Shown here: positions 15,908-35,898 of the stretch, piece after piece
Numbering within the stretch: position 1 is the first letter of the stretch
How the letters are laid out: the number at the start of each line of letters is the position of its first letter
Source of the DNA: Actinomycetota bacterium
Lineage (GTDB): Bacteria; Actinomycetota; Acidimicrobiia; IMCC26256; BP-133
Reading direction: 5' to 3'
Length of the DNA: 64,000 nt
NCBI GenBank assembly: GCA_040756995.1
Contig: JBFLYK010000036.1
Coordinates: 192-64,191, forward strand
Notes under the pieces: model-generated
What the model saw: the letters and a program-made list of their open reading frames with translations, nothing else
Told to the model about the DNA's origin: nothing
The model's database searches: none
Position numbers and translations under genes: made by a program

Positions 15908-15926
15908 AATTCGTCGGCGCAACACG

Positions 15927-17896: not shown

Positions 17897-17897
17897 A

Positions 17898-19364: not shown

Positions 19365-19402
19365 CTCCCTTCGTCCGCTGATCACCACGCGGGAGGTTTG
19401 AA

Positions 19403-19876
19403 ATGATGTCAGTCGTTGAACAGGACGGCCTCGTAACACTGGAGGCCGACGAAGCCGTCCCAGTGAGGGACGAGCGGAGGGGACGCCTGGGCGCGCTCTT
19501 CGCCGATCCGCTGTGGGTCCTGCTGTTCGTCGGGCTCGTCGCCGTCGCCGTTGGGCTGGCGGGCGTCTTCTTGGCGCTGGCCCGCGTCCGACCGGAAATC
19601 GCGGTCCTGCGACAGATGCCGTACGTCGTGAGCGCCATCGCGTTCGGGACGCTCGCCCTGCTGGGGGCGCTGACCTGCTGTGGTTTCGTCGCCTGGCGAG
19701 CCTTCGGCCAGGTTCGCACGCTCACTTCCGAGCTCGAAGAGGCGGCGGCCGCGCTGATGTGGGAACGCGTCGCCGCGTCGGAGACCGAGCGGCGCGCCCG
19801 GCCGGCCCCGGCGGGAACCGACGATCGGCCGGCAGCCCGTTCCTCCGCCTCTACGGTCCGGACAACCGCAGGCTGA
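19403..19876 (+). CDS. Hypothetical two-TM membrane protein
   Basis: RBS GGGAGG upstream. TM segments LWVLLFVGLVAVAVGLAGVFLALA and VVSAIAFGTLALLGALTCCGFVAW, then a helical acidic tail. I recognise no family. Confidence 0.65.
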   Translation: MMSVVEQDGLVTLEADEAVPVRDERRGRLGALFADPLWVLLFVGLVAVAVGLAGVFLALARVRPEIAVLRQMPYVVSAIAFGTLALLGALTCCGFVAWRAFGQVRTLTSELEEAAAALMWERVAASETERRARPAPAGTDDRPAARSSASTVRTTAG

Positions 19877-19880
19877 GCGC

Positions 19881-20738
19881 GTGTTCCTCCAGTTCGTCAT
19901 CGTCGGCATCGGCATCGGGTTCATCTACGTGCTCTTCGCCGTGGGGATGGTGCTCATCTACCGGGAGAGCCGGGTCGTGAACTTCGCCCACGGCGGATTC
20001 GCCGCCGTGGGGGCCTATCTGTTCACCACGGTCTACAGCGGCGGCAGCCGCGGTTACGGCACGGCGTTGACGGCCGCGGTGCTGGCGTGCGCCGCGCTGG
20101 CGTGGCTCTCACATCGTCTCGTCCTACGGCTTGTGAGCGAGGCCGACCAGCTGACGTCGGCCATGGCGACGCTCGGTGTCCTCACGTGCACGATCGCCGG
20201 CATCCTCTGGGTCTTCGGCGCCACGCCGCGAGCGGTCCCTCCGGGCTTCGGCGGTGACGGGCTGACCTTCGGGTCGCTGGTCGTCACCTACCACTCGCTC
20301 TCCATCATGGTAACGGGAGCCGTCCTGTGCGCACTCCTGGGCTACATCGTCCAGCAGACCGGCATCGGGCGTTCGCTGCGGGCCATCTCCGAGAACCGGA
20401 CCACGGCCGCCCTGCTCGGGATCCCCGTTCGGCGCTACGACGAGGTCACCTGGGCCATCGCCGGTGGGCTGGCCGGCTTCGCCGGGGTGATGGTCACCCC
20501 GAGCACGGGCGTGACCGCCACGGCCCTCGTCTTCCTCCTCGTCAAGGGGTTCGCCGCCGCCCTCGTCGGCCGGTTCGAGAACCTCGTACTGGTCGTGGCC
20601 GGGGGCCTCACCATCGGGGTGATGGAGAGTCTCGTCATCTGGAAGTTCCAGCAGGTCGACGGACTGCGGGAGCTGCTGACGTTCGCCTTGATCGCCGCCG
20701 CCCTCCTGACCCGGGAGCGGGAGCGGGTGATCGCGTGA
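19881..20738 (+). CDS. Branched-chain-amino-acid-type ABC permease (LivH family)
   Basis: FLQFVIVGIGIGFIYVLFAVGMVLIY N-terminus and a multi-TM profile typical of LivH. Confidence 0.88.
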   Translation: MFLQFVIVGIGIGFIYVLFAVGMVLIYRESRVVNFAHGGFAAVGAYLFTTVYSGGSRGYGTALTAAVLACAALAWLSHRLVLRLVSEADQLTSAMATLGVLTCTIAGILWVFGATPRAVPPGFGGDGLTFGSLVVTYHSLSIMVTGAVLCALLGYIVQQTGIGRSLRAISENRTTAALLGIPVRRYDEVTWAIAGGLAGFAGVMVTPSTGVTATALVFLLVKGFAAALVGRFENLVLVVAGGLTIGVMESLVIWKFQQVDGLRELLTFALIAAALLTRERERVIA

Positions 20739-22675: not shown

Positions 22676-23397
22676 GTCTCCTCCACATCGAAAACGTCGT
22701 AGCGTCCTACGGCCGGGTGCGGGTCCTGCACGGTGTCAGCCTCAAGGTCCGGGAAGGCCAGATCGTCAGTCTGCTCGGCGCCAACGGTGCCGGGAAGACC
22801 ACGACCCTGAAGGTGATCAGCGGGCTGCTCCCAGCCACCGCCGGCCGTATCACGTTCGGTGGAGTCCCGCTGCCCCGCACGCCCGACGCCATCGCCCGGG
22901 CCGGTATCGCGCACATTCCGGAGGGCCGTGGAATCTTCGCGACCCTCACCGTGAGGGAGAACCTGCAGTTGGGTGGCCGCCATCTCGGCGCTCGGCTGCC
23001 GCAGGAGTTCGATCGGGTGTTCGAACTCTTTCCGCGGCTGTCGGAACGCCTGGCCCAGCGGGCGGGGACGCTATCCGGAGGGGAGCAGCAGATGCTGGCC
23101 ATCGGGCGGGCGTTGCTCCGGCAGCCCCAGCTGCTCATGATCGACGAGCTGTCGCTGGGGCTCGCCCCGGTGGTGCTCGACGAGCTCTTCCCGGTCCTGC
23201 CCCGGATCGCAGCGCAGGGCACCGCCGTGCTCCTTGTGGAGCAGTTCGTCGGCCGGGCGCTGCAGGTCGCCGGCTACGCCTACCTGCTCGAGAAGGGCCG
23301 GGTCCAGGTCCACGGCTCACCAGACGAATTGTCACGTGACCAGACGGCGCTCAAGAGCGCCTACCTCGGAGGGGTAGAGGCCTCCCACACACGTTAG
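22672..23397 (+). CDS. ABC transporter ATP-binding protein (LivF family)
   Basis: GANGAGKTTTLK Walker A, LSGGEQQML signature and LLMIDELSLGLAP Walker B. 4-nt overlap with the upstream gene. Confidence 0.9.
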   Translation: MSLLHIENVVASYGRVRVLHGVSLKVREGQIVSLLGANGAGKTTTLKVISGLLPATAGRITFGGVPLPRTPDAIARAGIAHIPEGRGIFATLTVRENLQLGGRHLGARLPQEFDRVFELFPRLSERLAQRAGTLSGGEQQMLAIGRALLRQPQLLMIDELSLGLAPVVLDELFPVLPRIAAQGTAVLLVEQFVGRALQVAGYAYLLEKGRVQVHGSPDELSRDQTALKSAYLGGVEASHTR

Positions 23398-23408
23398 GAG
23401 AAGCAGAC

Positions 23409-23777
23409 ATGGATGACGAGGAGTTCCGGGCCACGATCGTCAAAGTGATCGGTGCGGTGGTCCACCAGCCGGAAGTGAAGAAGATTGCCGGATCCGGCAA
23501 GGTCTTCGCCTTCGGAGCGATCGACGCCCCGGCGACCTGGTACATCGACGCCAGCGGCGATCCGGTCTTCTCTGAGGGCACCCCGGAGAAGTTCGAAGTG
23601 CGGGCCACGATGACGAAGGCGGACTGGATATCGTTGCTGGCTGGCAAGCTGTCGCCAACCCAGGCCATGCTTCGAAAGAAGCTCAAGGTCGAGGGGTCAG
23701 TGGCGGCCATCACGAGCTTGTCGATGGACGCGCTCATCCGGACCTACAAGGAGCAGATGGAGGGTCAGACGGCGTGA
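23409..23777 (+). CDS. SCP2 sterol-carrier-like domain protein
   Basis: ADWISLLAGKLSPTQAMLRKKLKVEGSVAAITSL is the SCP2 C-terminal signature. Confidence 0.8.
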   Translation: MDDEEFRATIVKVIGAVVHQPEVKKIAGSGKVFAFGAIDAPATWYIDASGDPVFSEGTPEKFEVRATMTKADWISLLAGKLSPTQAMLRKKLKVEGSVAAITSLSMDALIRTYKEQMEGQTA

Positions 23778-24535
23778 TCCTCCAGGACAAAGTCGGCGTC
23801 ATCACTGGCGCCGCTCAGGGTATCGGACGGGCTTATGCTCTGGCTTGCGCCGCTCAGGGTGCCAGCGTAGTGCTGGCCGACATCCAAGATTCGGGGCCGG
23901 CGGCCAAGGCAGTGGAGGAGGAGGGAGGCACCGCCCTGGCCGTCGAGGTCGACGTGACCCGGCCAGAATCGAACGAGTCCATGGTGGCCGCCACGCTGGA
24001 GAAGTTCGGGCGAATCGACTTCCTGGTCAACAACGCTGCCCTCTACGGCGATCTCGAGTTGACCTACTGGGAGGACATCGCGATCGAGGATTGGGACCGC
24101 GTGATGGCCGTCAACGTGAAAGGCATGTTCCTGGCCAGCAGGGCGGTTGCCCCGCACTTCATCGAGCAGAGGGCCGGAAAGATCGTCAACATCTCATCGG
24201 GTACCGCCCACGCCGGCATCGTCGGGGCGCTGCACTACGTGACGTCGAAAGGAGCGGTAATCGGTTTCACCCGCGCACTGGCCCGCGAGCTCGGCGACTT
24301 CGGCATCAACGTCAACTGCCTGACGCCCGGCTTCACGATGAGCGAAGCCAGCAAGAAGCTCATGCGCGAGGCGGGGGCCGAGTCGTTGGAGGACCTCGTC
24401 GTCGCCGCCCAATGCTTCAAGCGGCCGGAGCAGCCCGAAGACCTGACCGGCGCGGTGGTGTTCCTCGTCTCGAACCTCTCCGACTTCATGACCGGCCAGG
24501 TCGTGAACGTCGACGGCGGATGGGTGATGCACTAG
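23774..24535 (+). CDS. SDR family oxidoreductase
   Basis: TGAAQGIGRAYA, NNAA and S...YVTSKGA (YxxxK). 4-nt overlap with the SCP2 gene. Confidence 0.9.
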   Translation: MILQDKVGVITGAAQGIGRAYALACAAQGASVVLADIQDSGPAAKAVEEEGGTALAVEVDVTRPESNESMVAATLEKFGRIDFLVNNAALYGDLELTYWEDIAIEDWDRVMAVNVKGMFLASRAVAPHFIEQRAGKIVNISSGTAHAGIVGALHYVTSKGAVIGFTRALARELGDFGINVNCLTPGFTMSEASKKLMREAGAESLEDLVVAAQCFKRPEQPEDLTGAVVFLVSNLSDFMTGQVVNVDGGWVMH

Positions 24536-24798: not shown

Positions 24799-25431
24799 TC
24801 AGCTCGAGACGGAGGAACTCGATCTCGACGGCTTCGGTTGTCTCTGGCCGAGCGGCGCCTGCAGGGCTTTGGCCCCGAGATGACTGACCAGGTCCCCGAA
24901 AGCATCGGGGCTTACACCGCGGCCCCGCCGGTACCAGCGGACCGCGGCGTTCGTCATCCCGAGCAGCGCCAAGGCCGTCAGCTTGGGTGGAACATCCTCG
25001 AAGTCCCCTGCGTCGATGCCGTCCTGGATGACGGCCGCGAGCTGGTCGACGTAGTACCGCTCGCCGGCTTCGAGTGTGTCGCGCACCCGGGTCGGAAGCG
25101 ACTTCATCTCGGCCAGGTACACCCCGAAAATGTTCACGTTGCTCAGGACGAGGCTGGCGTGGGACCTCAGGATCCGGTCGAGTTTCTCCGCCGGCGGAGC
25201 ATCCAGCGCGGCCGTCTGCTCCAGCTGCGCCGTGATTTCGTGGCCGGCGCTCTCGATCACCGCTACGAGGATCTGCTCTTTGCTCTTGAAGTAGTAATAC
25301 AGAGCGGCTCGGGTGAATCCGAACTCGTCAGCGATGTCATTGAGCGTGGCGCTGCGGTAGCCCTTGTTCCGGAAGACACGTGCCGCCACCCGGAGGATCT
25401 CGTCCCTTCGCGCACCGTTCGACACTGCCAC
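24799..25431 (-). CDS. TetR family transcriptional regulator
   Basis: HTH ILRVAARVFRNKGYRSATLNDIADEFGFTRAALYYYFKSKE. GTG 25431 is preferred. The upstream part of the 300-aa ORF is Arg/Pro-rich and non-coding-like. Confidence 0.85.
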   Translation of the reverse strand: MAVSNGARRDEILRVAARVFRNKGYRSATLNDIADEFGFTRAALYYYFKSKEQILVAVIESAGHEITAQLEQTAALDAPPAEKLDRILRSHASLVLSNVNIFGVYLAEMKSLPTRVRDTLEAGERYYVDQLAAVIQDGIDAGDFEDVPPKLTALALLGMTNAAVRWYRRGRGVSPDAFGDLVSHLGAKALQAPLGQRQPKPSRSSSSVSS

Positions 25432-25508: not shown

Positions 25509-25526
25509 TTACTTTCTTGAAAGTCA
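25509..25526. promoter_or_regulatory. Putative operator TTACT-N8-AGTCA (site c) in the divergent TetR/reductase intergenic region
   Basis: TTACTTTCTTGAAAGTCA also contains the perfect palindrome ACTTTCTTGAAAGT. It lies between divergent starts at 25431 and 25572. Confidence 0.5.
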
Positions 25527-25571: not shown

Positions 25572-26582
25572 TTGGTCCATCGGGTGACGATTGCCGGTGG
25601 ACGGTCCTTCGAGGCTGCGGCAGGCGAAAGCCTGCTGGACGCCGCCTTGCGTAGCGGGATCGCGCTGCGCTACGGCTGCCGGCGGGGCAAGTGTTCGACA
25701 TGCAAGCACGTCGTGGTGGAAGGCGACGTGGACGACAGCGGCATCTCCGCCTACGCCCTGCTCGACGACGAGCGCGACGAGGGCGTCACGCTCTTGTGCC
25801 AGGCGTTCGCCCGCAGTGACTGCCTCATCGAACTGCTCGAAGACGGCGCCGACGGCGGCGCTGACCTACCGCTACCGAGAACCATCGAGGCCGCCGTGGC
25901 CGAGGCGACGCCCCTGTCACGGTCGTTGTGGTCCGTGGTGCTCGACCTCGCTGACCCCCTCGATTTCCTCGCCGGCCAGTACGTCGAAGTCGGTGTTCCC
26001 GGGCAGCCGGAGCTCACGCGGCCGTACTCGATCGCGTCGGCGTCGAGTGCCGTCAAACGGGTCGAGCTGGTGGTGAAGCGCCTCGACGGTGGTGCCTTCT
26101 CCGGCCAGCTGGGATCCCTGCCGGCCGGCACGCCGACCTTCGTCCGGGGCCCGTTCGGCCAGATGCACCTCCGAACGACGGGACGGCCGGTCACGCTCGT
26201 CGGCGCCGGATCGGGCATCGGCCCGCTCTTCGGGATCCTCCGGGAGCTGGCCGAGCGTGAACCTCACCGGCCGGTGCGGCTCTTCTATGGCGCGGCGACA
26301 GCCGCCGACCTCCCGTTTGCCGACGAGCTCCGTCGGCTCGGGCGGGAAGTCCCGGGCCTCGAGGTCCACATCACACTGAGCCGCCCGGAACCGGCCGAAG
26401 GCTGGACCGGCCCCGTCGGGCGGGTGACGACCCTGCTGGCCCGGGCCTTCGGCGACGAGCCGGATACCGACGCCTACGTCTGCGGACCCGCCGAGATGTG
26501 CGACCACGTGTCGCTGTTCCTCGAGGCGCGAGGTGTCCCGCCCCGCCAGATCCATATGGACAGGTTCTACCCGGCCGACTGA
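25572..26582 (+). CDS. NAD(P)H oxidoreductase: N-terminal plant-type [2Fe-2S] ferredoxin + FNR-like FAD/NAD module
   Basis: CRRGKCSTCKHVV...LLCQ cluster ligands, then RPYSIAS (FAD) and TLVGAGSGIGPL (NAD). This is the domain order of SDIMO/BenC-type reductases. TTG 25572 has GGGGAG upstream. Confidence 0.88.
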   Translation: MVHRVTIAGGRSFEAAAGESLLDAALRSGIALRYGCRRGKCSTCKHVVVEGDVDDSGISAYALLDDERDEGVTLLCQAFARSDCLIELLEDGADGGADLPLPRTIEAAVAEATPLSRSLWSVVLDLADPLDFLAGQYVEVGVPGQPELTRPYSIASASSAVKRVELVVKRLDGGAFSGQLGSLPAGTPTFVRGPFGQMHLRTTGRPVTLVGAGSGIGPLFGILRELAEREPHRPVRLFYGAATAADLPFADELRRLGREVPGLEVHITLSRPEPAEGWTGPVGRVTTLLARAFGDEPDTDAYVCGPAEMCDHVSLFLEARGVPPRQIHMDRFYPAD

Positions 26583-26611
26583 CGGCCCCCATGCCCGGGA
26601 GGAGCGGAGCG

Positions 26612-26746
26612 ATGTTCCAAGTGCTATGGGAGTGTGACAGCTGTGGTCACATCTGGGGCGCGAGCCCCACCGAGGTCTGTACGACCTGCCCCGCCTGCCA
26701 CAGCGAGGATATCGAGCAGGGCGACCAGCCCGTCGCGGTGAACTGA
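26612..26746 (+). CDS. Small zinc-ribbon protein (44 aa)
   Basis: MFQVLWECDSCGHIWGASPTEVCTTCPACHSEDIEQGDQPVAVN has CxxC...CxxC. A strong GGGAGGAG lies upstream, and the ORF is wedged between the reductase and the oxygenase. Confidence 0.55.
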   Translation: MFQVLWECDSCGHIWGASPTEVCTTCPACHSEDIEQGDQPVAVN

Positions 26747-26757
26747 CAGGAGGCCTG

Positions 26758-27543
26758 ATGACCATCACAGAGGACCCCGAACTGCTGGCCCAGCCGCTCC
26801 AGTTCGAAGCCGGCGACGCGCTGCCGCCCGAATACAAGAAGCTGCTGACCACGCTCTTCTACCATCATGCCGAGGTGCTGACTCCGACGCTGGCCTACGA
26901 GCGTTTCATCCGGCACATCGTCGACATCGGCATGGAGATGGCGCCGGACCCCGAGGCGAAGTTGCGGCTGGCCAACTTCTATGCCGAAGAAGTGCGCCAC
27001 GGCTATCTCTTCGCCAAGCTCTATGCCGGGATCGACCCGAGCCTACCGGAACAGATCCTGACCGCCTCCGGCCTGATGGCGGGCTTCGCGACCGGACAGC
27101 CCGGCGTCGGCCCCTTCACTCAAGCCATCGAGGACTGGCTCGACCTGGCGTTGTTCAACTTCCTCATCGACGGCGAAGGCTGTTGGCAGATCTCGGAGTG
27201 GGAAACATCGTCGTACGCGCCGCTGGCCAAGATCGCCGGTCAGGTCTCGCGCGATGAGCGGGGCCATTCCAACATGGGCTACCTCCACCTCAAGCGGGCG
27301 GTACAGAACGATCCGGCCGCCCACCGGCTGGCGCAGGAACGGCTCTACGACAAGTGGTATCCGGTGGCGCTCGACACGTTCGGCCGGTCGGAATCCAAGC
27401 GGAACATGGAGTACCGGCGGTGGTCATTGAAGCGCCGCTCGAACGAGGAGCTGCGCCGGAGCTTCGTGGCCTATGTGAATCCCATGCTGGAGCGGCTGGG
27501 GTTCGAGGTGCCGCCCTACGAGCACAATCGTCATTTCCTGTGA
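26758..27543 (+). CDS. Ferritin-like di-iron oxygenase subunit, PaaA/PaaC family (paralogue 2)
   Basis: Two ExxH motifs (YAEEVRHGY, SRDERGHSN). Same length (261 aa) as the 11766 product and collinear with it. Confidence 0.85.
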   Translation: MTITEDPELLAQPLQFEAGDALPPEYKKLLTTLFYHHAEVLTPTLAYERFIRHIVDIGMEMAPDPEAKLRLANFYAEEVRHGYLFAKLYAGIDPSLPEQILTASGLMAGFATGQPGVGPFTQAIEDWLDLALFNFLIDGEGCWQISEWETSSYAPLAKIAGQVSRDERGHSNMGYLHLKRAVQNDPAAHRLAQERLYDKWYPVALDTFGRSESKRNMEYRRWSLKRRSNEELRRSFVAYVNPMLERLGFEVPPYEHNRHFL

Positions 27544-27974
27544 GCAGCGCGCCCGCCGTGCCGATCAACCCCGATACCCTCATGCGGGCCAGGGGCTACT
27601 CCCACGGGCTCCTGGCTCCCGGGGGCTGGCTGTTCGTGGCTGGTCAACTCGGGACTGACACAGACTGCACCTATCCCGGCGGCGATGATGTCGTCGCTCA
27701 ATTCGACCGGGCGCTGTGGAACTTCCTCGAGGTCGTGCGTCGCGGCGGCGGAGAGCCCTCCCACGTTGTGAAAATGACGTTCTTCGTAACCGACCTCGAC
27801 GAATGGTTCGGCCTTGCCGAGGAGCTCGGCCCGGTCTACCGCCGGCATTTCGACCGCCACTATCCGGCGATCACCCTGCTCCAGCAGCCCCGACTGACCA
27901 TCCCGGGTGGCAAGGTCGAGATCGAGGGCGTCGCACTCGTCCCGCCGCCGGAAGGGAGCTCCAATGAACGGTGA
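27540..27974 (+). CDS. RidA/YjgF/UK114 family protein
   Basis: FVAGQLGTD...VVKMTFFVTDLDEW...KVEIEGVAL matches the RidA pattern. GTG 27540 overlaps the upstream stop (GTGA). Confidence 0.8.
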   Translation: MSSAPAVPINPDTLMRARGYSHGLLAPGGWLFVAGQLGTDTDCTYPGGDDVVAQFDRALWNFLEVVRRGGGEPSHVVKMTFFVTDLDEWFGLAEELGPVYRRHFDRHYPAITLLQQPRLTIPGGKVEIEGVALVPPPEGSSNER

Positions 27975-29307
27975 CGGTACGGTCAGCCGCCGGACGTTCG
28001 CCAAGACGGAAACGCTCACGCGCCAGGAACTCGAGGCCTTCCAATTGCGGAAGGTGCGCCGGCTAATCGAACGCAACTGGGAACACAATCCCTTCTACCG
28101 CGACCTGTGGAAGAGGGCCAAGGTGTCGCCGGACGACATCCAGACGCTCGAGGACTTCCGCCGCCGTATCCCGCCGATCGAGAAACGCGACTGCCTGGAG
28201 GATCAGACGGAGAACCCGCCGGTCGGGCGGCGGCTGGGGGTGCCGGAGACCCGCCTGGCGCAGATCCACCTCACGAGCGGCACCAGCGGCGTGGGGCAGG
28301 AAGCTTGGGGCCTCACCCAGGCGGACGTCGAACTGGCCGGGACGCTGTGGCTGTACCAGTACCACTGGATGGGTCTCGAGCCGGGCAACGTGGCCTTCTT
28401 CTCGATGCCCGTCGCCTTCTTCGCCAACGGCCTGGCCACGGAGTATGCGAGCCGCAAGTTCGGAATGGTCTCCCTCAACCTGTTCGGCATGGACAGGGAG
28501 CTCGTGTTCCGGCTGATGGAGCGCTTCCAGCCGCACTACGTCTACGGGACGATGGCGATGCCGGCCATGGGCGGTGCCGGCAACGAGAAGCCCGGCGAAC
28601 GCCTCCATCGCCTCAAAGCCCTGTCCGGCGCGCTGATGGGAGTTGAGACCATCAAGAAGGTCGTCGAAGCGTGGGGCGCGCCGGTCTACGAGATGTACGG
28701 CTGCACCCAGGCGTCCTCCGTCGTCGGAGCGACGTGCGAGCAGGGCGCCGTGGTCGACGACCAGGCCGGGATGGTGCACTTCCTCGAGGGCCACTTCATC
28801 GTCGAATGCCTCAACCGGGAGACCGGCGAGCCGGCCGAGCCGGAGGAGGATTGCGAGATCTTCCTCACCACCCTGGACCGGGAAGCCTCGCCGGCGATCC
28901 GGTTCCGCATCCACGACAAAGCCACGTTCCTACCCCACAGCGCGTGCCGTTGCGGCCGCCCCTATCACGGCTACAGGGTCGGGACGGTCGCCCGCTGGGA
29001 CGACATGATGAAGATCAAAGGCATCAACATCTGGCCGGCCATGATGGATGACATCCTCATGACCCACCCCGAGGTACGGGAGTACCGCGGGTTCTTCGAG
29101 ATCGACCGGGCACGCGCCCGGGACGTGATGCGGATCGTCGTCGATTTCAAGTCCGACGTGGCGGCTGAACGGCGGCCATTCCTCCTCGAAAGCCTGGCCG
29201 CCGACGTCAAGGCGAAGACCTTCGTCACGCCGGTCGTGGAGGAGGCGCCGGAACCCCTCGCCGAGTTTACGTTCAAGCCGGTCCGCTGGTCCGATACCCG
29301 CAAGTAG
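27964..29307 (+). CDS. Adenylate-forming CoA ligase, PaaK / coenzyme-F390-synthetase-like clade
   Basis: N-terminal LRKVRRLIERNWEHNPFYRDLW, TSGTSGVGQ loop, and C-terminal MMKIKGINIWPAMMDDIL typical of PaaK-like enzymes. ATG 27964 overlaps the RidA gene by 11 nt. Confidence 0.85.
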   Translation: MNGDGTVSRRTFAKTETLTRQELEAFQLRKVRRLIERNWEHNPFYRDLWKRAKVSPDDIQTLEDFRRRIPPIEKRDCLEDQTENPPVGRRLGVPETRLAQIHLTSGTSGVGQEAWGLTQADVELAGTLWLYQYHWMGLEPGNVAFFSMPVAFFANGLATEYASRKFGMVSLNLFGMDRELVFRLMERFQPHYVYGTMAMPAMGGAGNEKPGERLHRLKALSGALMGVETIKKVVEAWGAPVYEMYGCTQASSVVGATCEQGAVVDDQAGMVHFLEGHFIVECLNRETGEPAEPEEDCEIFLTTLDREASPAIRFRIHDKATFLPHSACRCGRPYHGYRVGTVARWDDMMKIKGINIWPAMMDDILMTHPEVREYRGFFEIDRARARDVMRIVVDFKSDVAAERRPFLLESLAADVKAKTFVTPVVEEAPEPLAEFTFKPVRWSDTRK

Positions 29308-29338
29308 CCCGTCACCGTCACCTCCCAGGAGCGCACCG

Positions 29339-29572
29339 ATGCAGATCTCGCGACAGCTGGCCATCCAGAAGGTCTGGGACTCACCCGACGTCATTCCCGA
29401 AGTCGTCGAGCTGCTGTCGGCAATTCCCGACGCCGTCTGGGACAGCGCGAGTGGACTCGATGAGCTGCGCACCGTGGCCGAGCCCTACTGCGCGGCCACG
29501 GGCTGCGACCCTGACGAACTCGAGCAGGTGCTCAGCCGCCACGTCGGTGATCCGTGGTGGCAGCCAGAATGA
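29339..29572 (+). CDS. Small hypothetical protein, tandem paralogue A (77 aa)
   Basis: Gapless ~33% identity to the next ORF (R.L....VW..D..P.V.E.L..I....W...L..L...G.D.DE...V.SR). GC3-rich. Confidence 0.6.
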   Translation: MQISRQLAIQKVWDSPDVIPEVVELLSAIPDAVWDSASGLDELRTVAEPYCAATGCDPDELEQVLSRHVGDPWWQPE

Positions 29573-29784
29573 GAGCGGATCGGGAACTGGTCCGGCATCG
29601 GGTCTGGGAGGCGTCGGACTGCGTGCCGGGGGTATGTGAGGTGCTGGGGGTGATCACCGAGAGGGAGTGGGAGGCGGCGCCCGATCTTCGTTCACTTGCC
29701 ATGGCGCATCGCTCCGATCTGACCGCCGAGGGCACCGACGAAGACGAGTTCGTGCTGGTGATCAGTCGTTGGACCACCGAATAG
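29569..29784 (+). CDS. Small hypothetical protein, tandem paralogue B (71 aa)
   Basis: ATG 29569 overlaps the stop of paralogue A (ATGA). The shared motif is described under paralogue A. Confidence 0.6.
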   Translation: MRADRELVRHRVWEASDCVPGVCEVLGVITEREWEAAPDLRSLAMAHRSDLTAEGTDEDEFVLVISRWTTE

Positions 29785-29794
29785 GAGCTGATCG

Positions 29795-32074
29795 ATGGTG
29801 CTGGGCAAGGCCGTGCGGCGGGTGGAGGACGGACCGCTCCTGGACGGGCGGGGCTGCTGGACGGATGACATTGTTCTTCCCGACCAGCTCTATGTCTCGT
29901 TCGTCCGCAGCAACGAGGCGCACGCTCGTCTGGCCGGCGTCGACGTCGAGGCCGCCCGACTCATGCCCGACGTGGTCGGCGTATGGACCGGCCAGGAACT
30001 CGAGCCGCTGCCCGGCGTGCCCACCTGCGGGGGGTACATGACGCTCGCCGGGCTCGAGCAACCGGTGTTGGCCCGAGAGCGTGTCCGCTATGTCGGCGAA
30101 CCGGTGGCTGTGGTCGTAGCCCGGAGCCGGGCGGCGGCCGCCGATGCGGTCGAGGCGGTCGTCATCGACTATGAACCGCTTCCTGCCGTCGTCGACCCGA
30201 TGGTCGCCCTGGATCCGGCCGCGCCGACGCTGTTCCCGGATCTCGGCACGAATGTGATCCTCGACGAGAACCCTGAGCCGATCCCCGACGGGTTCTTCTC
30301 GGAGGCCGACATCGTCGTCGAGATCAGCAACCTCAACCACCGGATGGCGTCGGTGGCGATGGAGCCCCGAGCGGCCCTGGCGGGTCGGCATCCCGACACC
30401 GGGGAACTCACCCTCTGGCTTTCCAGCCAGCACCCTCAGAAGGTGCGGAACGACATCATGGCCATCCTCGGGTTCGGGGCCGACCAGCTCCGGGTCATCG
30501 CTCCGGAGGTGGGTGGGGGGTTCGGGCCCAAGGCGATGCTGCACCCCGAGGAGGTGGTGCTCGTCATGCTGGCCCGGCGGCTCGGCCGGCCGGTCAAGTG
30601 GTCCGAGACGCGCAGCGAGCATCTCGTGGCCACCCATCACGGGCGGGCCCAGATCCATCGGTGGCGGGTCGGGGCGAAGCGGGACGGGACCCTGGTGGCC
30701 ATCGCCGGGGACGTGATCGCCGACGTCGGAGCCTATCCCAGCCTGGCGCCTCTCCTCGTCTCGGTCACCGCCCAGATGGCCCCCGGTTGCTACCGCGTCC
30801 AGCGCGTCCACCTCCGGGCCCGGGCCGTGCTCACGAATACCACTCCGGTCGGTCCCTACCGCGGGGCGGGTCGCCCCGAAGCGGCCTTCACCATCGAACG
30901 GGCCGTCGAAGAGGTGGCCCGCCGGCTGCATCTCGACCCCATCGACGTCCGGCGGCGCAACTTCATCCAGCCGGCCGAATTCCCCTACGAGACGGCCACC
31001 GAGATGAGCTACGACAGCGGGGACTACGAGGCCTGCCTCGATCGGTTGCTCGAGGGGCTCGATATCGACCAGGTCCGCAAGGAGCAGGCTGACCGGGTCG
31101 CTCAGGGACGGCCTCTGCTGGGTGTCGGAATCGCCTGCTACGTCGAGATCTCCGGCTCCCTCGGTCTCGGCGAAGAGGCGGCCGTCGAGGTCCTGCCCGA
31201 CGGCCGGGTCGAGGTCCGGACGGGCACATCACCCCACGGACAGGGCCACCGCACCGTGTGGGCGCAGATCGCCGCACACCATCTCGGCGTCCAAGTCGAC
31301 GCCGTCGACGTGGTCCACGGCGACACCCGCTACGTCGCGCAAGGGAACGGCACGACCGGGAGTCGCTCGGCCCAGTTCGGCGGCTCGGCCGTCTACCGGG
31401 CTTCCGAGCTGATGGCCCAGCGCCTCCGCGAGCTGGCTGCCGACCTGCTCGAAGCAGCACCGGCCGATATCGAACTGGCCGAAGGCGGCGCCTACGTCCG
31501 CGGGACGCCGTCCCGCCGCCTTTCGCTGGCCGAACTCCGGTCGGTCGCCGGGGACGAGGGGCTGCGGGAGTCGTTCTTCTTCGACCAGGACAACTGGACC
31601 TACCCCGGCGGTGCCCACGGCGTCGTCGTCGAGATCGACAGGGATACCGGCCTCGTACGCCCCGTTCGGGTGGTGGCCGTCGACGACTGCGGCACACTGA
31701 TCAACCCTCTGATCGTGGAAGGCCAGGTCCACGGCGGCGTCGTGCAGGGGCTGGCCCAGGCGCTGTGGGAGGAAGTCCGGTACAGCGCCGAAGGGCAGCC
31801 GCTGACCACCAGCTTGCTGGACTACCTGGTCCCGTCAGCGTGTGAGGTGCCGTCGCTGGAGACGTACGCGGTTGAAACCCCCTCCCCGCTCAACCCGCTC
31901 GGCGCCAAAGGCATCGGCGAGGCGGGAGCCGTCGGGATGCCGCCGGCCGTCGTCAATGCGGTCCTTGACGCCCTCGCGCCACTCGGAGTGCGGGACATCC
32001 CCATGCCGTTGACGCCGGAACGGGTCTGGCGGGCCATCGCCGACGCCGAAAACGAGCAGGCGGGTCGCCAGTGA
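29795..32074 (+). CDS. Xanthine-oxidase/aldehyde-oxidase family molybdopterin-binding large subunit (CoxL-like)
   Basis: VRRVEDGPLLDGRG N-terminus, APEVGGGFGPK, and C-terminal GAKGIGEAGAVGMPPAV (catalytic Glu region). 759 aa. Confidence 0.9.
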   Translation: MVLGKAVRRVEDGPLLDGRGCWTDDIVLPDQLYVSFVRSNEAHARLAGVDVEAARLMPDVVGVWTGQELEPLPGVPTCGGYMTLAGLEQPVLARERVRYVGEPVAVVVARSRAAAADAVEAVVIDYEPLPAVVDPMVALDPAAPTLFPDLGTNVILDENPEPIPDGFFSEADIVVEISNLNHRMASVAMEPRAALAGRHPDTGELTLWLSSQHPQKVRNDIMAILGFGADQLRVIAPEVGGGFGPKAMLHPEEVVLVMLARRLGRPVKWSETRSEHLVATHHGRAQIHRWRVGAKRDGTLVAIAGDVIADVGAYPSLAPLLVSVTAQMAPGCYRVQRVHLRARAVLTNTTPVGPYRGAGRPEAAFTIERAVEEVARRLHLDPIDVRRRNFIQPAEFPYETATEMSYDSGDYEACLDRLLEGLDIDQVRKEQADRVAQGRPLLGVGIACYVEISGSLGLGEEAAVEVLPDGRVEVRTGTSPHGQGHRTVWAQIAAHHLGVQVDAVDVVHGDTRYVAQGNGTTGSRSAQFGGSAVYRASELMAQRLRELAADLLEAAPADIELAEGGAYVRGTPSRRLSLAELRSVAGDEGLRESFFFDQDNWTYPGGAHGVVVEIDRDTGLVRPVRVVAVDDCGTLINPLIVEGQVHGGVVQGLAQALWEEVRYSAEGQPLTTSLLDYLVPSACEVPSLETYAVETPSPLNPLGAKGIGEAGAVGMPPAVVNAVLDALAPLGVRDIPMPLTPERVWRAIADAENEQAGRQ

Positions 32075-32979
32075 CACCGGTCATCGACATCCACACGCAC
32101 TGTCTCTCCGGGGGGCGCACGGCCGACGAGGTCGCCCAAGGGCTCCTGAGCCTCAACGAAGAGGGACTGGCCCGGTTGCTCCTGATCATGTCGCCGCCGT
32201 TCTCCCGCAATCCGGAGGAGATGGTGGCGATGTATCCCGACGTGGCCCGACACGTCGCCGCCCGCTCCGACGACTTCGAGGTGCCGTTCGGCCTCAAGGT
32301 CTTCGACGCGCTCGGCCCCCGCCGCAGTCTCGTCACGGCCTATATTGGTTTTCACACCTACTTCCCCGACGTGGCTCGCGGTGCGCCGTTTGAGCCGGTC
32401 CGAGCGGTTCTCGACGAGCTCGGCGACGTCGTCGGTGGCTTGAAGATCCACTATTTCCGCCCTGCGCCCGACCACCCCATGGCCCAGCAGTTCGGCGGGG
32501 GAGCCTGGGATCAGGACCGCTTCGACGCCTTCACCGTCCGGGTCCTCGCCGAGGCCCGGGAGCGCCAGCTGCCAGCGGTGATCCATGTCGATCTACGTGA
32601 AGGCGGGCGAGCCTTCGTGGATCTGATCCGACCGTTCTCGGACGTCACCTTGTGTCTCTGCCACTTCGGCTACAGCCGCCGGCTGTGCGGCGAGCTCCTC
32701 GAGGAACTGCCCTGGCTCGTCACCGACATGTCGGGCATCGAACTCCATGCCAGCATGTATGCCCGGCTGCCGGCCTACCATGACTTCGTGACGCGTTTCC
32801 CCGACCGGGTGCTCTACGGCTCCGACCAGTACATCTGCGACACGGCCGAACTCCGCAAGGCCTGGGATCTCGTCGACGCCCTCGAGTTGTCCGACGACGT
32901 CGCCGAGCAGGTGCGCTACGGGAACGCCGAGCGCTTTCTCCGCCAGGAGCCGCACCCGGGGGTCAGCCGCCGGCCCTAG
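32071..32979 (+). CDS. Amidohydrolase-2-type metal-dependent hydrolase (TIM barrel)
   Basis: VIDIHTHCL HxH motif at the N-terminus. GTG 32071 overlaps the upstream stop (GTGA). Confidence 0.75.
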   Translation: MTPVIDIHTHCLSGGRTADEVAQGLLSLNEEGLARLLLIMSPPFSRNPEEMVAMYPDVARHVAARSDDFEVPFGLKVFDALGPRRSLVTAYIGFHTYFPDVARGAPFEPVRAVLDELGDVVGGLKIHYFRPAPDHPMAQQFGGGAWDQDRFDAFTVRVLAEARERQLPAVIHVDLREGGRAFVDLIRPFSDVTLCLCHFGYSRRLCGELLEELPWLVTDMSGIELHASMYARLPAYHDFVTRFPDRVLYGSDQYICDTAELRKAWDLVDALELSDDVAEQVRYGNAERFLRQEPHPGVSRRP

Positions 32980-33292
32980 CCCCCTCGTGTTCCATCCCCA
33001 TCTGCGGGAATTGCGAGGTCACCCGCACGACGTCACCGTCGATCTCCGCCCGGCCGGCGTAGGACGCGAACGTGACGAGGATGTCCTCCACGGTGACGTC
33101 CTCGCCCAGCTCGTCCGACAGCTCCTCGGCATCGACGGTCAGCTCGCCAGCGGCCTCCAGGACCCAGTACGCCCCGCGATCCGTGACGGTGACCGCGGGG
33201 TTTGACCGGCGGACGAGGGCCACGATGCCATCGCCTTCGGCCGTCTTCATGAGCCCGATGCGGACGAAACCTTCTCCGTGCTCGACGGACAT
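32963..33292 (-). CDS. Soluble di-iron monooxygenase effector/coupling protein (MmoB/DmpM family)
   Basis: 109 aa. GLMKTAEGDGIVALVRRSNPAVTVTDRGAYWVLEAAGELTVDAEELSDELGEDV resembles MmoB/DmpM/TmoD-type effectors. Confidence 0.8.
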   Translation of the reverse strand: MSVEHGEGFVRIGLMKTAEGDGIVALVRRSNPAVTVTDRGAYWVLEAAGELTVDAEELSDELGEDVTVEDILVTFASYAGRAEIDGDVVRVTSQFPQMGMEHEGARAGG

Positions 33293-33298
33293 GTCAGC

Positions 33299-34306
33299 TC
33301 ATACCTCCGCCGGGACGCCGAGTCGCGTTCCGGCCAGCATCGAACGCCAGCTCTCCTCTACCGCCGCTCGGGCGCCGACGGCGTCGACCCCGACCCGGTC
33401 GGCGACCGGTGCCAGCGAGTCGATGACCCGGGCGAGCAGCGGATACCACTGCGTGATCCAGCCCTCGATGACCTGCCGGTTGTGGTCGCCAGCGGCGGTG
33501 TCAGTGAGCAGCAGCTCGGCGAAGGCGCTCATCGCCGTGATGTTCGTCTGGCGGTCGTTCTCCGCCTCGAGCAGGATCGCCGGCGTCGTCGTGTCATGGT
33601 GCGGCCCGGCGCCCGCCCACAGCAACTCGTTGAACAAGAAGCGGCCGACCAGCGGCTCGACCAGAAGGTTCGTGACCAGTGCGACCTCTCCCCAGTCGGG
33701 CGTGGCGTTAATCCGCTCGGCGAGCTCGCGGAGGCCCTGCAGCACCGGATTCTCCATCCACTGCTGGTGACGGTCGTCGGCACCCACGGGCACCCCGGCG
33801 GCGCCTAGGTCGTGGTGGTGAAAGACGATGTCCTGGGCGTGGCGCTCCTTGTCCGACGAGTTGAAGATGAAGGCGGTCATCAACATGTCGGAGAGGGCGA
33901 TCCCGGCGGCGTGCATCAACGCCCGGGAGAGGCCGTGCTCGAAGAACGCTGTCGGGAGGTAGATATCGCCGATGACACCCTCAGCCCAGGCGGGAGCCAT
34001 CCGTGTCAACTGGCCCGACTGGCGGGCCGCCGCCATGGCGCGTTCGATGGCGCGTTCCTGCTCCGCCTGCCGCTTGACGTGGGTGCGCTGCCACCGCTGG
34101 GCAGGGTCTCGGAAGGCGTAGAAGTTCTCGGACCGCAGCGCCGTCGTGTCGGCCGGCCAGCCCGTCGACTTGGCCACCGGGTTGTCCATGGATGTTTCCA
34201 GCGGCAGGACATAGAGGTTGAGCGCTTCGTACTCGGAGATCCGCCGACCCATGGGCTTGACGTAGAGGAATTCCCGGGGGCCGTCGAAGGGGCCTTTCTC
34301 GCTCAC
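33299..34306 (-). CDS. Soluble di-iron monooxygenase hydroxylase beta subunit
   Basis: Ferritin-like beta-subunit pattern (FEHGLSRALMHAAGIA...SSDKERHAQD). GTG 34306 overlaps the alpha stop (GTGA). The N-terminal Arg-rich part of the 364-aa ORF is rejected. Confidence 0.82.
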   Translation of the reverse strand: MSEKGPFDGPREFLYVKPMGRRISEYEALNLYVLPLETSMDNPVAKSTGWPADTTALRSENFYAFRDPAQRWQRTHVKRQAEQERAIERAMAAARQSGQLTRMAPAWAEGVIGDIYLPTAFFEHGLSRALMHAAGIALSDMLMTAFIFNSSDKERHAQDIVFHHHDLGAAGVPVGADDRHQQWMENPVLQGLRELAERINATPDWGEVALVTNLLVEPLVGRFLFNELLWAGAGPHHDTTTPAILLEAENDRQTNITAMSAFAELLLTDTAAGDHNRQVIEGWITQWYPLLARVIDSLAPVADRVGVDAVGARAAVEESWRSMLAGTRLGVPAEV

Positions 34307-35898
34307 CGGGCACCGGCTTTCTGGGCTTCCCCGTAGATCCGGGCGGGGTTTTCGATGGCGACGTCGTGCCGGCGGATGTCGTCGATCGTCCATAGGCGGT
34401 CCGGCTTGATGTGGGGCTGGCCCAGGAGTGTCTTGCCGTCAGCCCGGAGGAGCCCTTGCTTCACGATGAACTCCTCCAGGCTCCACCCGTCGTGGGCGAC
34501 GTAGAACGGGTCGTTGGGGAACTTCTCGGGGAAGAGTTCGAACGCCATCTGGCAGAAGAAGGAGCAGAAGGCGTGCCACGTGCCATCGACTTCGAGGAAG
34601 GACGCCTCTCCGCTAAAGGGGTCGGGCAGGTAGCACGGCGACTTGCAGACCTGGCAGATGGGGGGGAGCTTGCCGCTCGGCAGGAGCTCGAACGGCGCGA
34701 CCCCGCTGGCCGGATCCACGGCTTCCCGGTACTTCTCCCAGAACTGGCCGTACGTCGAGTACCACCCGGGATACTTGCTCTCCAGCCATTCGAAGTCCCG
34801 CTCGGTGAGCGGGTCGAAGCGGTTGATGGCCATGGGCCACGTGCCGAAGTGGAAGACGGCGCTGGCATGGCCAGCGAGCCGGCTGTGGTCGCGGGAGAAC
34901 TCCGCCGTACCCGGCGGCTCGAGGCCGAACGGCTGCAGCCGGCCCATGTAGGCGCCCACGAAGTTCTCCCACACCCACTCGTCCCAGATCTCGGCGTAGG
35001 AGCGGGCCCGGTTCGTCGGCATGTAGTCGTAGAGCACGCCGAAGTACCCGTTCAGAAGCACGCTGAACTGGAGGAACGACCCATCGATCTCCGGCTGGAG
35101 GAGCGGCAGATTGTCCGGTTCGCTCAGTACGGCGGCGAGACCGGCGTAGCCGTTGGCCATGTGCCGGGCCTCGTCCGACTGGATACTGAGGAAGACCGTC
35201 GGCGTGACGTGGTCGCCGTTGGCCGCCGCCAGCTCCGTCACCGCGATGAAGATCGGATTGGTGTAGGCCGTCTCCGCCATAGCCTGGAACGAGATGGCAA
35301 CGGTCATCGGATCCTCGTTCCACAGCCCGTCGCTGAAGGAGTGCATCGGGCCGAAGATGGGAAGGTCACGGTCTCGCAGCTCGAAGCCACGGGCGAAGGC
35401 TTCCGGGTCCTCCCAGTGCTTGGCCCAGAACCGCTGCAGGTACGTCTGCTGGTTGAAGTGACGGACCTCGTCCATGACCTGCGCCATATACCCCGAGCGC
35501 AGCTCCGGGTTGTCGAGCGAGTCCATGCACACTCGGGCTCCCTGGAGGGCGCCCAACTCCAGTTGCGTGAGGAACGGCAGAATGAACTTGAGCGTCTCGA
35601 TCCAGCCCCGGTCGGCCTTGTCGGGTTGTCCGACGCGGTTGAGGACGTCGGTGATCGACCCGTACATGCGGTCGTCCTTCTCCTCCTCCATAGCGGAGTA
35701 CTGCCGGATCAGGTGCCTGAAAGGGTCCTTGGTGTGCTTCGGCAGCTTGTACTTCGTCGGTCGCGGGTAGGCCACCTCGTGATACGTAGGCGTCCAGTCG
35801 AGTCCCTTGACCCGATCGTGGACGCTGTTGAGTCGTGCGGCCGCAGGCCTCATCCGATCCCCCGGTCGATCGTGGAGGCTGGGAGCGGGCTTCAACAA
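34303..35898 (-). CDS. Soluble di-iron monooxygenase hydroxylase alpha subunit
   Basis: Di-iron ligand motifs MDEVRH and SDEARH at the spacing expected for SDIMO alpha subunits. About 530 aa. The start could be 35898 or the downstream in-frame Met (MRPAAARL). Confidence 0.88.
   Translation of the reverse strand: MLKPAPSLHDRPGDRMRPAAARLNSVHDRVKGLDWTPTYHEVAYPRPTKYKLPKHTKDPFRHLIRQYSAMEEEKDDRMYGSITDVLNRVGQPDKADRGWIETLKFILPFLTQLELGALQGARVCMDSLDNPELRSGYMAQVMDEVRHFNQQTYLQRFWAKHWEDPEAFARGFELRDRDLPIFGPMHSFSDGLWNEDPMTVAISFQAMAETAYTNPIFIAVTELAAANGDHVTPTVFLSIQSDEARHMANGYAGLAAVLSEPDNLPLLQPEIDGSFLQFSVLLNGYFGVLYDYMPTNRARSYAEIWDEWVWENFVGAYMGRLQPFGLEPPGTAEFSRDHSRLAGHASAVFHFGTWPMAINRFDPLTERDFEWLESKYPGWYSTYGQFWEKYREAVDPASGVAPFELLPSGKLPPICQVCKSPCYLPDPFSGEASFLEVDGTWHAFCSFFCQMAFELFPEKFPNDPFYVAHDGWSLEEFIVKQGLLRADGKTLLGQPHIKPDRLWTIDDIRRHDVAIENPARIYGEAQKAGAR

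Follow-up and report, generated by a model that had tools for sequence, protein, structure and literature searches.

A candidate multicomponent di-iron oxygenase of the PaaA/BoxB class in a predicted catabolic island of uncultured soil Actinomycetota

Introduction

To our knowledge, only two enzyme systems, PaaABCE and BoxAB, attack aromatic rings aerobically as coenzyme A (CoA) thioesters. In PaaABC(D)E of Escherichia coli and Pseudomonas, a PaaK-family ligase stands beside a PF05138 subunit with E/ExxH/D/ExxH ligands, accompanied by small non-catalytic partners and by an NADH-dependent Fe-S flavoprotein reductase, PaaE, in which the FNR-like module is N-terminal and the 2Fe-2S domain C-terminal. 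In the BoxAB/BoxC/BoxD system, the ligase, the reductase and the thioester epoxidase are joined by a ring hydrolase of the enoyl-CoA hydratase (ECH) fold (BoxC) and by an aldehyde dehydrogenase (ALDH; BoxD). Here, we analyze a nine-gene operon that shares parts of both layouts and occupies positions 25572-32979 of a 64,000-nucleotide (nt) stretch of contig JBFLYK010000036.1 from an Actinomycetota bacterium (assembly GCA_040756995.1); this entire stretch, with a G+C content of ~68%, is referred to below as the window.

Two other described systems bear on the comparison. In the smoABCD cluster of Mycobacterium and Rhodococcus, a group-6-type soluble di-iron monooxygenase (SDIMO) is encoded in the order alpha, beta, coupling protein, reductase (PMC4428276), and in the ibuprofen pathway, ipfABDEF, a CoA ligase and an oxygenase acting on the CoA ester are combined with the thiolase and DUF35 proteins IpfD/E, which remove the side chain (PMC9195938). 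A previous reading of the window made from the sequence alone, without database searches (hereafter, the sequence-only reading), had described a compact nine-gene operon. The operon is not self-contained: the nine genes are linked to an SDIMO, a second PaaA-like protein, a Rieske ferredoxin, a thiolase/OB-fold/MaoC module and an ABC importer. With slightly better than even confidence, we propose that they form one arm of a conserved island of ~25 kb present in uncultured soil Acidimicrobiia-like Actinomycetota and that the core of this arm is a new multicomponent di-iron oxygenase of the PaaA/BoxB class acting on CoA thioesters.

A tight operon with recurrent gene order

Nine plus-strand open reading frames (ORFs) with a strong coding signal in third-codon-position G+C (GC3) fill the interval 25572-32979:

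25572-26582, plus strand: reductase with the Pfam domain order Fer2 - FAD_binding_6 - NAD_binding_1; TTG start, with GGGGAG 5' of it
26612-26746, plus strand: 44-amino-acid (aa) Cys4 protein, recognized by conservation and codon-position bias
26758-27543, plus strand: PaaA-like di-iron oxygenase subunit, predicted (PF05138, E 1.9e-17)
27540-27974, plus strand: RidA/YjgF-family protein (PF01042)
27964-29307, plus strand: PaaK-family adenylate-forming acid-CoA ligase (AMP-binding and AMP-binding_C_2)
29339-29572, plus strand: s77, a 77-aa all-helical small protein matching the N-domain of long-form PaaA-like proteins
29569-29784, plus strand: s71, a 71-aa paralog of s77 with weaker matches to the same N-domain
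29795-32074, plus strand: CoxL-like molybdopterin subunit of the xanthine oxidase family (three Pfam domains)
32071-32979, plus strand: divergent metal hydrolase of the Amidohydro_2 fold (PF04909, E 1.6e-16)

The nine genes form a tight operon: the junctions, in gene order, measure +29, +11, -4 (GTGA), -11, +31, -4 (ATGA), +10 and -4 (GTGA) nt, and AGGAG-like Shine-Dalgarno sequences precede the genes that do not overlap their predecessors. From this spacing we infer a single transcript; no promoter- or terminator-like sites were seen inside the operon in a scan that is of little use in high-GC DNA. The sequence-only reading had described the same nine co-directional genes, and its gaps and overlaps were reproduced to the nucleotide. 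The motifs it quoted (TSGTSGVGQ, EEVRH and DERGH) are all there, together with DIHTHC, and every domain it named is backed by Pfam.

The same gene order is found again in L094, L005 and L007 (68-90% protein identity), which are independent metagenomic sequences, so the arrangement is not a product of chance. In L007, the synteny is identical except for RidA, and the PaaK-like gene starts ~12 nt after the stop codon of the PaaA-like gene. The three small ORFs are real genes, given that their differences among relatives fall mostly at third codon positions or are synonymous; for the 77-aa ORF compared with L005, the 3 codon positions carry 5/6/30 differences, and of the codon changes, 27 are synonymous and 8 non-synonymous. 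Among relatives in general, the persistent modules are the PaaA-like gene (usually with the Cys4 gene), PaaK-s77-s71 and Amidohydro_2, along with the SDIMO and its reductase, the thiolase/OB-fold/MaoC set and the Rieske ferredoxin.

A PaaA-like subunit with the full set of di-iron ligands

The PaaA-like protein matches PaaA in the Protein Data Bank (PDB) with an E value of 9e-13 and scores 54.7 bits against TIGR02156, for which the cut-off is 280. Across 20 relatives, down to 32% identity, E78, H81, D138, E167 and H170 never vary, and position 39 is E or D in nearly all. Judged from its sequence, the protein is a distant PF05138 member with the six-ligand set of PaaA intact and is predicted to be the catalytic subunit of a di-iron oxygenase; the single PaaA-like subunit with both ExxH motifs noted in the sequence-only reading is thus upheld by the PF05138 match and the conservation of the ligands. 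An AlphaFold2 model of a 398-aa relative reached pLDDT 89 and pTM 0.90, and a Foldseek search with this model retrieved PaaA chains as the best matches, followed by SSO1313, PaaC and BoxB.

The locus is, as had been recognized from the sequence, not a canonical paa cluster: all NCBIfam equivalog scores lie far under their cut-offs. The operon has no match to PF06243 (PaaB) or DUF59, no PaaD was found, and there is no adjacent PaaC; PaaG and PaaZ are not present either. A Cys4 mini-protein and two copies of a new helical domain take the place of the Paa partners, and the reductase, of SDIMO descent, begins with Fer2. The distance from the Box system is equally large, the PaaA-like protein scoring 18.9 bits against BoxB (~470 aa; cut-off 499) and the BoxA score being 24 bits (cut-off 459). 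No characterized pathway with this gene set or synteny was found among NCBIfam equivalogs, solved structures and the literature searched.

New small proteins, probable partners of the oxygenase

The two small helical proteins, s77 and s71, are paralogs with 35% identity. The PaaA-like protein has 63 database relatives, 39 of which are long-form proteins of ~360-416 aa, and when these 39 were searched, s77 matched residues ~4-75 of an N-terminal extension in the 38 listed by blastp (E 1e-5 to 5e-11 in this small database); the matches of s71 to the same N-terminal domain are weaker but consistent. The same extension, matched by both s77 and s71, occurs in the homolog encoded on a plasmid of Variovorax sp. 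WDL1. In L095, a third s77-type gene (59% paralog) lies directly 3' of the PaaA-like gene; PaaK-s77-s71 are kept together in L008 and L095, and s71 orthologs are found in L005, L094, L007, L008 and L095. Being fused to the oxygenase in the long form and adjacent to it in L095, s77 and s71 can be regarded as oxygenase-associated and are probably subunits or partners of the PaaA-like enzyme.

The AlphaFold2 model of s77 is all-helical (pLDDT 88), and in the long-form model, the N-domain has pLDDT 88-98; the pTM of 0.90 for the whole chain is consistent with an N-domain docked on the ferritin core. Six positions are invariant in s77/s71 (D17, P20, W34, L40, L43 and R67). The domain has no Pfam match at E<=10, one chance match aside, no PDB sequence relative and no Foldseek match at E<1; PDB profile matches consist of designed helical repeats only, and a weak profile built from two sequences yielded 7 matches in 1.84 billion representative proteins, one of them a spurious repeat protein. 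It is a new small protein domain. An identity with IscX or acyl carrier protein (ACP) was considered and rejected on the same Pfam and Foldseek results and on the lack of a conserved Ser; an IscX gene is present in L002.

The 44-aa protein contains four invariant cysteines (C8, C11, C26 and C29) in two knuckles, CxxC...CPxC, and its gene directly precedes that of the PaaA-like protein in the window, L094, L007, L008/L001 and L005. Its matches, to zinc-ribbon and HypA models, a rubrerythrin model (E 0.0012) and Pfam RUBY_RBDX (E 0.0097), are all non-significant. The protein is zinc-ribbon-like or rubredoxin-like, and both electron transfer by Fe and a structural role with Zn are possible. Rubrerythrin joins a di-iron four-helix bundle to a rubredoxin-like Fe(Cys)4 domain, whereas here the CxxC...CPxC element is a separate polypeptide whose family matches are non-significant. 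In a large, distant clade of PaaA-like proteins, a Cys-rich protein of ~100 aa is encoded in 26 loci, in 24 of which it lies <=500 nt upstream of the oxygenase gene on the same strand; in P0052, the two form a fusion protein. Homology between the 44-aa protein and this Cys-rich protein of the Rokubacterial clade was rejected for lack of any similarity, and we treat the two as analogous.

A reductase probably shared with a convergent SDIMO

Convergent with the operon is an SDIMO unit (32963-35898, minus strand):

32963-33292, minus strand: MmoB-type coupling protein (Pfam)
33299-34393, minus strand: SDIMO beta (Pfam)
34303-35898, minus strand: MmoX-like SDIMO alpha (Pfam)

The alpha subunit scores 323 bits to MmoX of soluble methane monooxygenase (sMMO; PDB) versus 125 bits to phenol hydroxylase and has no NCBIfam match; this SDIMO appears to be a divergent clade from uncultured Acidimicrobiia. 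The unit includes no reductase gene of its own; such a gene is found only at the head of the convergent operon. The SDIMO keeps its place next to the operon in L094, L007 and L005.

In this reductase, Fer2 spans residues 10-80 and is followed by the FAD and NAD domains, which agrees with the ferredoxin-first order, as opposed to the PaaE order, given in the sequence-only reading. The NCBIfam models of MmoC and BenC each score ~189 bits, below cut-off, the best PDB match is 5ogx, and the PaaE model covers residues 121-334 only, all of which places the reductase, by sequence, in the BenC, GcoB or MmoC type.

The key to its ancestry is L095, where the PaaA-like protein is 73-74% identical to that of the window. 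There, a single operon runs SDIMO alpha - beta - MmoB - reductase - OB-fold - thiolase - PaaK-like - s77-like - s71-like - metallo-beta-lactamase-fold - MaoC - MaoC, with a reductase ortholog 61% identical and a PaaK-like protein 65% identical to those of the window, while Amidohydro_2, the PaaA-like gene and the extra s77-like gene form a neighboring unit beside a Rieske ferredoxin and coxS. The first four genes reproduce the smoABCD order exactly. The reductase of the window is thus an SDIMO reductase by descent, which explains the ferredoxin-first order, and is most likely shared with the SDIMO; the L095 operon indicates a single functional set made up of SDIMO, ligase and small proteins. 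The window differs from smoABCD in that the reductase has come to head the convergent operon and the SDIMO, with its MmoX-like alpha, is embedded among PaaA-like oxygenases and a CoA ligase.

As an aside, the metallo-beta-lactamase-fold protein, of ~370 aa, is encoded directly 3' of PaaK-s77-s71 in both L008 (653-1771) and L095 (4395-5492). The operon in the window is devoid of it, and CoxL takes its position.

Ligase, RidA, CoxL and metal hydrolase

The ligase has the PaaK-type ANL architecture, AMP-binding plus AMP-binding_C_2 (a type of ~440 aa), and its PDB match to PaaK1 (119 bits, E 2e-33) bears out the sequence-only assignment as a PaaK-like adenylating enzyme. With 133 bits against TIGR02155 (cut-off 646), it is not at the level of a phenylacetate equivalog, and 2-hydroxyisobutyryl-CoA synthetase follows closely at 112 bits; equally near to both, the ligase tells nothing firm about an aromatic substrate.

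RidA scores 65 bits to PF01042, above cut-off, and 51.6 bits to TIGR00004 (cut-off 106). The gene is present in L005 and L094 and absent from the L007, L008 and L095 loci, a distribution from which it is best read as a dispensable accessory gene.

CoxL retains the catalytic Glu, and its GAKGIGEAG aligns with GAKGVGES of CO dehydrogenase. The active-site loop PYRGAGR is of the form-II/Qor type. Some sources name its homologs CO dehydrogenase, an identity we reject because this loop replaces AYxCSFR with its Cu-binding Cys. The gene was not seen at the rearranged L008 and L095 loci; in the L008 genome, coxL is on another contig, L098. No coxS or coxM was found by tblastn with the L008 genes in the 64-kb window, L007 or L005; both occur in the L008 island and in an Acidimicrobiales locus (L002), and coxS in L095. 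The "orphan" status assigned to this subunit from the sequence therefore holds for its position but, with coxS/coxM present in the islands of relatives, is no evidence for a stand-alone Mo enzyme.

The Amidohydro_2 protein has nine invariant residues (D6, H8, H10, K125, H127, H172, D174, H198 and D252), in keeping with the TIM-barrel metal site of the amidohydrolase superfamily, with its HxH, downstream His residues and strand-8 Asp. A search of 5.8 billion proteins yielded only 12 clusters of its subfamily, each of them from this lineage, and neither a PDB relative nor a characterized relative was found. We also considered it as a companion of actinobacterial SDIMO clusters such as mim/prm and dropped the idea as unverified: there is no plasmid homolog, the subfamily is confined to this lineage, and an amidohydrolase is unmentioned in PMC4428276.

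The surrounding island

Upstream of the operon, the catabolic genes comprise two blocks and a divergent regulator:

11766-16253, plus strand: upstream island module (Pfam), with orthologs in the L008/L001 and L095 islands
11766-12551, plus strand: second PaaA_PaaC di-iron protein (Pfam), ExxH motifs intact
13333-14460, plus strand: SCP-x-type thiolase (Pfam)
within 11766-16253, plus strand: ChsH2-like OB-fold protein and a FAS1_DH/MaoC hydratase pair (Pfam)
15927-16253, plus strand: stand-alone Rieske-type ferredoxin (Pfam)
16769-24535, plus strand: LIV-type ABC importer (binding protein, permeases, ATPases), SCP2 protein and short-chain dehydrogenase/reductase (SDR), directly upstream of the TetR gene (Pfam)
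23409-23777, plus strand: SCP2 protein (Pfam)
23774-24535, plus strand: SDR (Pfam)
24799-25416, minus strand: divergent TetR-family regulator (TetR_N and TetR_C_24; Pfam)
25511-25524, no strand: 6+6 palindrome ACTTTCttGAAAGT in the 150-nt gap between the TetR and reductase genes, read from the sequence

The second PaaA_PaaC protein, encoded 15 kb upstream of the operon, is 31% identical to the PaaA-like protein at 26758-27543; because it keeps the ExxH motifs, we consider it PaaA-like rather than PaaC-like. The 244-aa protein encoded after it (within 11766-13290) has no Pfam or NCBIfam match; in L008, its ortholog lies between two PaaA-like genes. The Rieske ferredoxin has orthologs (48-53% identity) directly before coxS in both L008 and L095 and could serve either the di-iron oxygenases or the Mo enzyme as an electron carrier. 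SCP2, SDR and TetR occupy the same positions in L094 and L007, the TetR orthologs being 71-72% identical, and TetR_C_24 regulators recur beside PaaA-like genes in L002, L087 and L098. The palindrome is a candidate operator on the strength of its sequence and location, and is absent from the listing of a repeat-finding tool at minimum length 10. A 441-aa ORF between the ABC binding-protein and permease genes (18039-19364) has a weak coding score and no Pfam match and may be mis-called or a divergent transporter component.

Downstream of the SDIMO are a TetR gene, an ECH gene, an acyl-CoA dehydrogenase (ACAD) gene and one for a thiamine diphosphate (TPP)-dependent enzyme:

38651-40621: E1 alpha/beta fusion of a TPP-dependent 2-oxoacid or acetoin dehydrogenase, 656 aa

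L098, from the same metagenome-assembled genome (MAG) as L008, repeats this content with coxL, TetR, ACAD, SDR, fused E1, RidA and an ABC system; its fused E1 counterpart, of 641 aa and with the same Pfam domains, is encoded beside coxL.

Like ipfABDEF, the island combines an acid-CoA ligase and an oxygenase with an SCP-x-type thiolase and its OB-fold (DUF35/ChsH2) partner. The ipf oxygenase, in contrast, belongs to the Rieske dioxygenases rather than to the PaaA-type di-iron enzymes, and the likeness is limited to shared families.

A widespread family of PaaA-like proteins

A scan of a genome collection detected at least 300 loci encoding PaaA-like relatives, of which 80, all from MAGs, were kept; they belong mostly to Rokubacteria, Acidobacteria, Chloroflexota and Acidimicrobiia. 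A plasmid collection added homologs from cultured strains, among them Variovorax sp. WDL1, whose plasmid gene is WP_068682101, and Rhodococcus, with the homolog of Rhodococcus jostii RHA1 located on pRHL1. Clustering of the neighbors encoded within 7 kb in 84 loci gave the following counts:

2,3-dihydroxybenzoate-AMP-ligase-like enzyme (TIGR02275, 587 bits): 26/84 loci
ECH: 13/84 loci
UbiD-like decarboxylase (assigned by eye): 8/84 loci
PaaK-like ligase: 7/84 loci
RidA: 6/84 loci
CoxL: 5/84 loci
any adenylate-forming ligase: 32/84 loci

Ligase, thiolase, MaoC, ECH or acyl-CoA mutase genes are neighbors in L002, L087, L092 and L093. Such gene associations support a CoA-thioester substrate for the family well, as far as sequence can. 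On the nature of the acyl group, the contexts point two ways, to an aromatic one in L025 and an aliphatic one in L087. L025, from a distant MAG, encodes at 6206-9639 (minus strand), divergently from the PaaA-like gene and adjoining an FAA-hydrolase-family protein, a pair made of a bicupin, which by eye reads as gentisate-dioxygenase-like, and a CoxL-like protein 42% identical to that of the window. The pair comes without coxS and coxM and is a further example, after the window, of a CoxL that is orphan by position next to a member of this oxygenase family. In L087, genes for a B12-dependent acyl-CoA mutase, alcohol dehydrogenase (ADH), ALDH, SDR and ECH lie near that of the long-form relative. 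On the Rhodococcus plasmids, genes for two small uncharacterized proteins, a PDR/VanB reductase and an ECH come after the PaaA-like gene, a variation on the same multicomponent theme with other small partners.

Proposed pathway and its weak points

Under the reading that we favor, an organic acid would be imported, probably by the adjacent LIV-type ABC system, and turned into a CoA thioester by the PaaK-family ligase; the PaaA-like subunit would then epoxidize or hydroxylate this thioester together with s77, s71 and the Cys4 protein. NADH would supply the electrons, which the Fer2-FAD-NAD reductase would pass on, perhaps with the Cys4 protein or the Rieske ferredoxin as an intermediate, and the same reductase would most likely also feed the reductase-less MmoX-like SDIMO, placing two di-iron oxygenases in one pathway. 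The Amidohydro_2 protein would open the oxygenated product hydrolytically and the Mo subunit, working with CoxS and CoxM encoded elsewhere, would subsequently oxidize the resulting aldehyde, following the logic of BoxC/BoxD or PaaZ, whereas the thiolase/MaoC, ECH and ACAD genes of the island would shorten or finish the carbon chain, and RidA would be a dispensable accessory. The proposed succession of ligase, reductase, thioester epoxidase, ring hydrolysis and aldehyde oxidation is that of the Box pathway, with the steps assigned by analogy: the Amidohydro_2 fold would stand in for the ECH fold of BoxC, and the Mo enzyme for the ALDH BoxD.

Several points weigh against this proposal. In both L008 and L095, the Zn/PaaA-like genes are in one operon and PaaK-s77-s71 in another, so that the nine-gene unit itself is not ancient, and all the close relatives are metagenome-assembled sequences, with no PaaA-like protein of this clade having a known substrate. 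The reductase could serve the SDIMO alone, with the PaaA-like enzyme fed from another source. The usual P-loop motif of such ligases is (S/T)(S/T)G(S/T)TGxPK, from which TSGTSGVGQ departs. The Cys4 protein may bind either Fe or Zn, its PDB matches being non-significant; CoxL is only putatively active in this genome, given that coxS and coxM are unseen in the window, L007 and L005; and the roles given above to Amidohydro_2 and CoxL are guesses by analogy.

A more specific form of the proposal is an unrecognized multicomponent acyl-CoA oxygenase made up of the PaaA-like protein, two new helical subunits and a mini-rubredoxin-like carrier, sharing its reductase with the SDIMO; in this full form, we hold it only tentatively and think it rather less probable than not to be right in every part. 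As to the substrate, our rough estimate puts an aromatic and a branched aliphatic or alicyclic acid close together, each somewhat short of even chances and the aromatic one marginally ahead, with an N-heterocyclic acid far behind.

Alternative explanations

Among the alternatives, the one that survives best, although we deem it unlikely, is a branched aliphatic or alicyclic route, in which the SDIMO oxidizes a hydrocarbon, alkene or ketone, the derived (hydroxy)acid is CoA-activated, and the PaaA-like enzyme hydroxylates an unactivated carbon. The near equality of the ligase scores to 2-hydroxyisobutyryl-CoA synthetase and PaaK (112 and 119 bits) speaks for it, as do an SDIMO alpha of the sMMO, propane or smo type rather than the phenol/toluene type, the setting of the L087 long form beside the B12-dependent acyl-CoA mutase, ADH, ALDH, SDR and ECH, and the ChsH2/Ltp2-like thiolase and hydratase genes, which suit branched CoA esters. 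However, the largest clade of relatives is paired with the 2,3-dihydroxybenzoate-AMP-ligase-like enzyme and UbiD-like decarboxylases, and the L025 gene keeps company with the gentisate-dioxygenase-like (by eye) bicupin, the FAA-hydrolase-family protein and CoxL. Moreover, all characterized PaaA/BoxB enzymes that we know of act on aromatic CoA esters.

The sequence-only reading had suggested that an N-heterocyclic or amino-aromatic acid passes through a hybrid route of CoA activation, di-iron oxygenation, ring hydroxylation by the Mo enzyme, opening by the amidohydrolase and imine quenching by RidA, to which we now assign only a slim chance. In the window, translational coupling is indeed seen for RidA, for a Qor/Kdh-like Mo subunit (PYRGAGR) and for an HxH metal hydrolase, and after CO dehydrogenases, the nearest solved Mo subunits act on quinoline and a nicotine metabolite. 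Yet RidA is missing from L007, where the synteny is otherwise identical, and from L008 and L095, and CoxL from the L008 and L095 loci; with both genes variably absent, the triad taken as the sign of N-heterocycle breakdown is not a conserved unit. Furthermore, the scanned parts of the island contain no amidase, deaminase or other nitrogen-specific gene, the contexts of distant relatives indicate aryl acids or aliphatic CoA esters, and characterized Amidohydro_2 members are mostly decarboxylases, hydratases and lactonases, not amide hydrolases. Of the suggestion of an undescribed CoA-dependent pathway, the general part stands, no characterized equivalent having been found, whereas the part on N-heterocycles and imine quenching, built on the two least conserved genes, is unlikely to.

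The operon might, alternatively, supply the SDIMO with a reductase and assembly or accessory factors, the PaaA-like protein being a non-catalytic ferritin-fold protein. The orthology of the reductase to the in-operon SDIMO reductase and the conserved SDIMO adjacency fit this scenario, but the six di-iron ligands are conserved across a family spanning 33-89% identity, which is widespread without any SDIMO, and we know of no ligase, Mo enzyme or hydrolase that acts as an SDIMO maturation factor; we judge it very improbable. Least credible of all is a natural-product cassette in which the PaaK-like enzyme activates a starter unit tailored by the di-iron enzyme: PaaK-like ligases are known in biosynthetic clusters, and there are weak NCBIfam matches to FlxY and BagE/FevW, but polyketide synthase, non-ribosomal peptide synthetase, carrier-protein, exporter and resistance genes are all absent, s77/s71 have neither a conserved Ser nor an ACP-like fold match, and the flanks carry an importer, beta-oxidation genes and oxygenases.

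If the shared-reductase reading is true, a single reductase serves two di-iron oxygenases of distinct evolutionary origin within the same pathway. The PaaA-like proteins represent a third branch of the CoA-thioester oxygenase family, widespread, unstudied and equipped with its own partner proteins, whose study would widen the known range of CoA-dependent oxygenation, and the s77/s71 domain is a new entry for the catalogue of small protein domains. The physical and evolutionary link to the SDIMO points to a union of hydrocarbon-type and thioester-type oxygenation within a single island of dominant uncultured soil bacteria, and the homologs in cultured Variovorax and Rhodococcus make the idea testable.

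Mobile elements and other flanking genes

Mobile elements lie on the flanks of the island, piling up at 1-11200 and 50015-51502:

15-2326: IS21 transposase/IstB pair
2407-2967, minus strand: DDE transposase fragment
3089-4885, minus strand: group II intron reverse transcriptase (RT)/maturase ORF
7567-9009: DUF772/DDE transposase
9770-11044, plus strand: group II intron RT/maturase ORF
3022-3099 (minus strand), 9192-9308 and 11060-11170: Rfam intron matches
50015-51502, minus strand: IS110 transposase

The catabolic island begins right after the second group II intron. Beyond the IS110 transposase, the window encodes a 1102-aa protein with CarboxypepD_reg and fibronectin-III domains (53479-56787, minus strand), a DUF5996 protein (56915-57958) and an FAD oxidoreductase (DAO) that has a fused Rieske domain at its C terminus (61998-63542).

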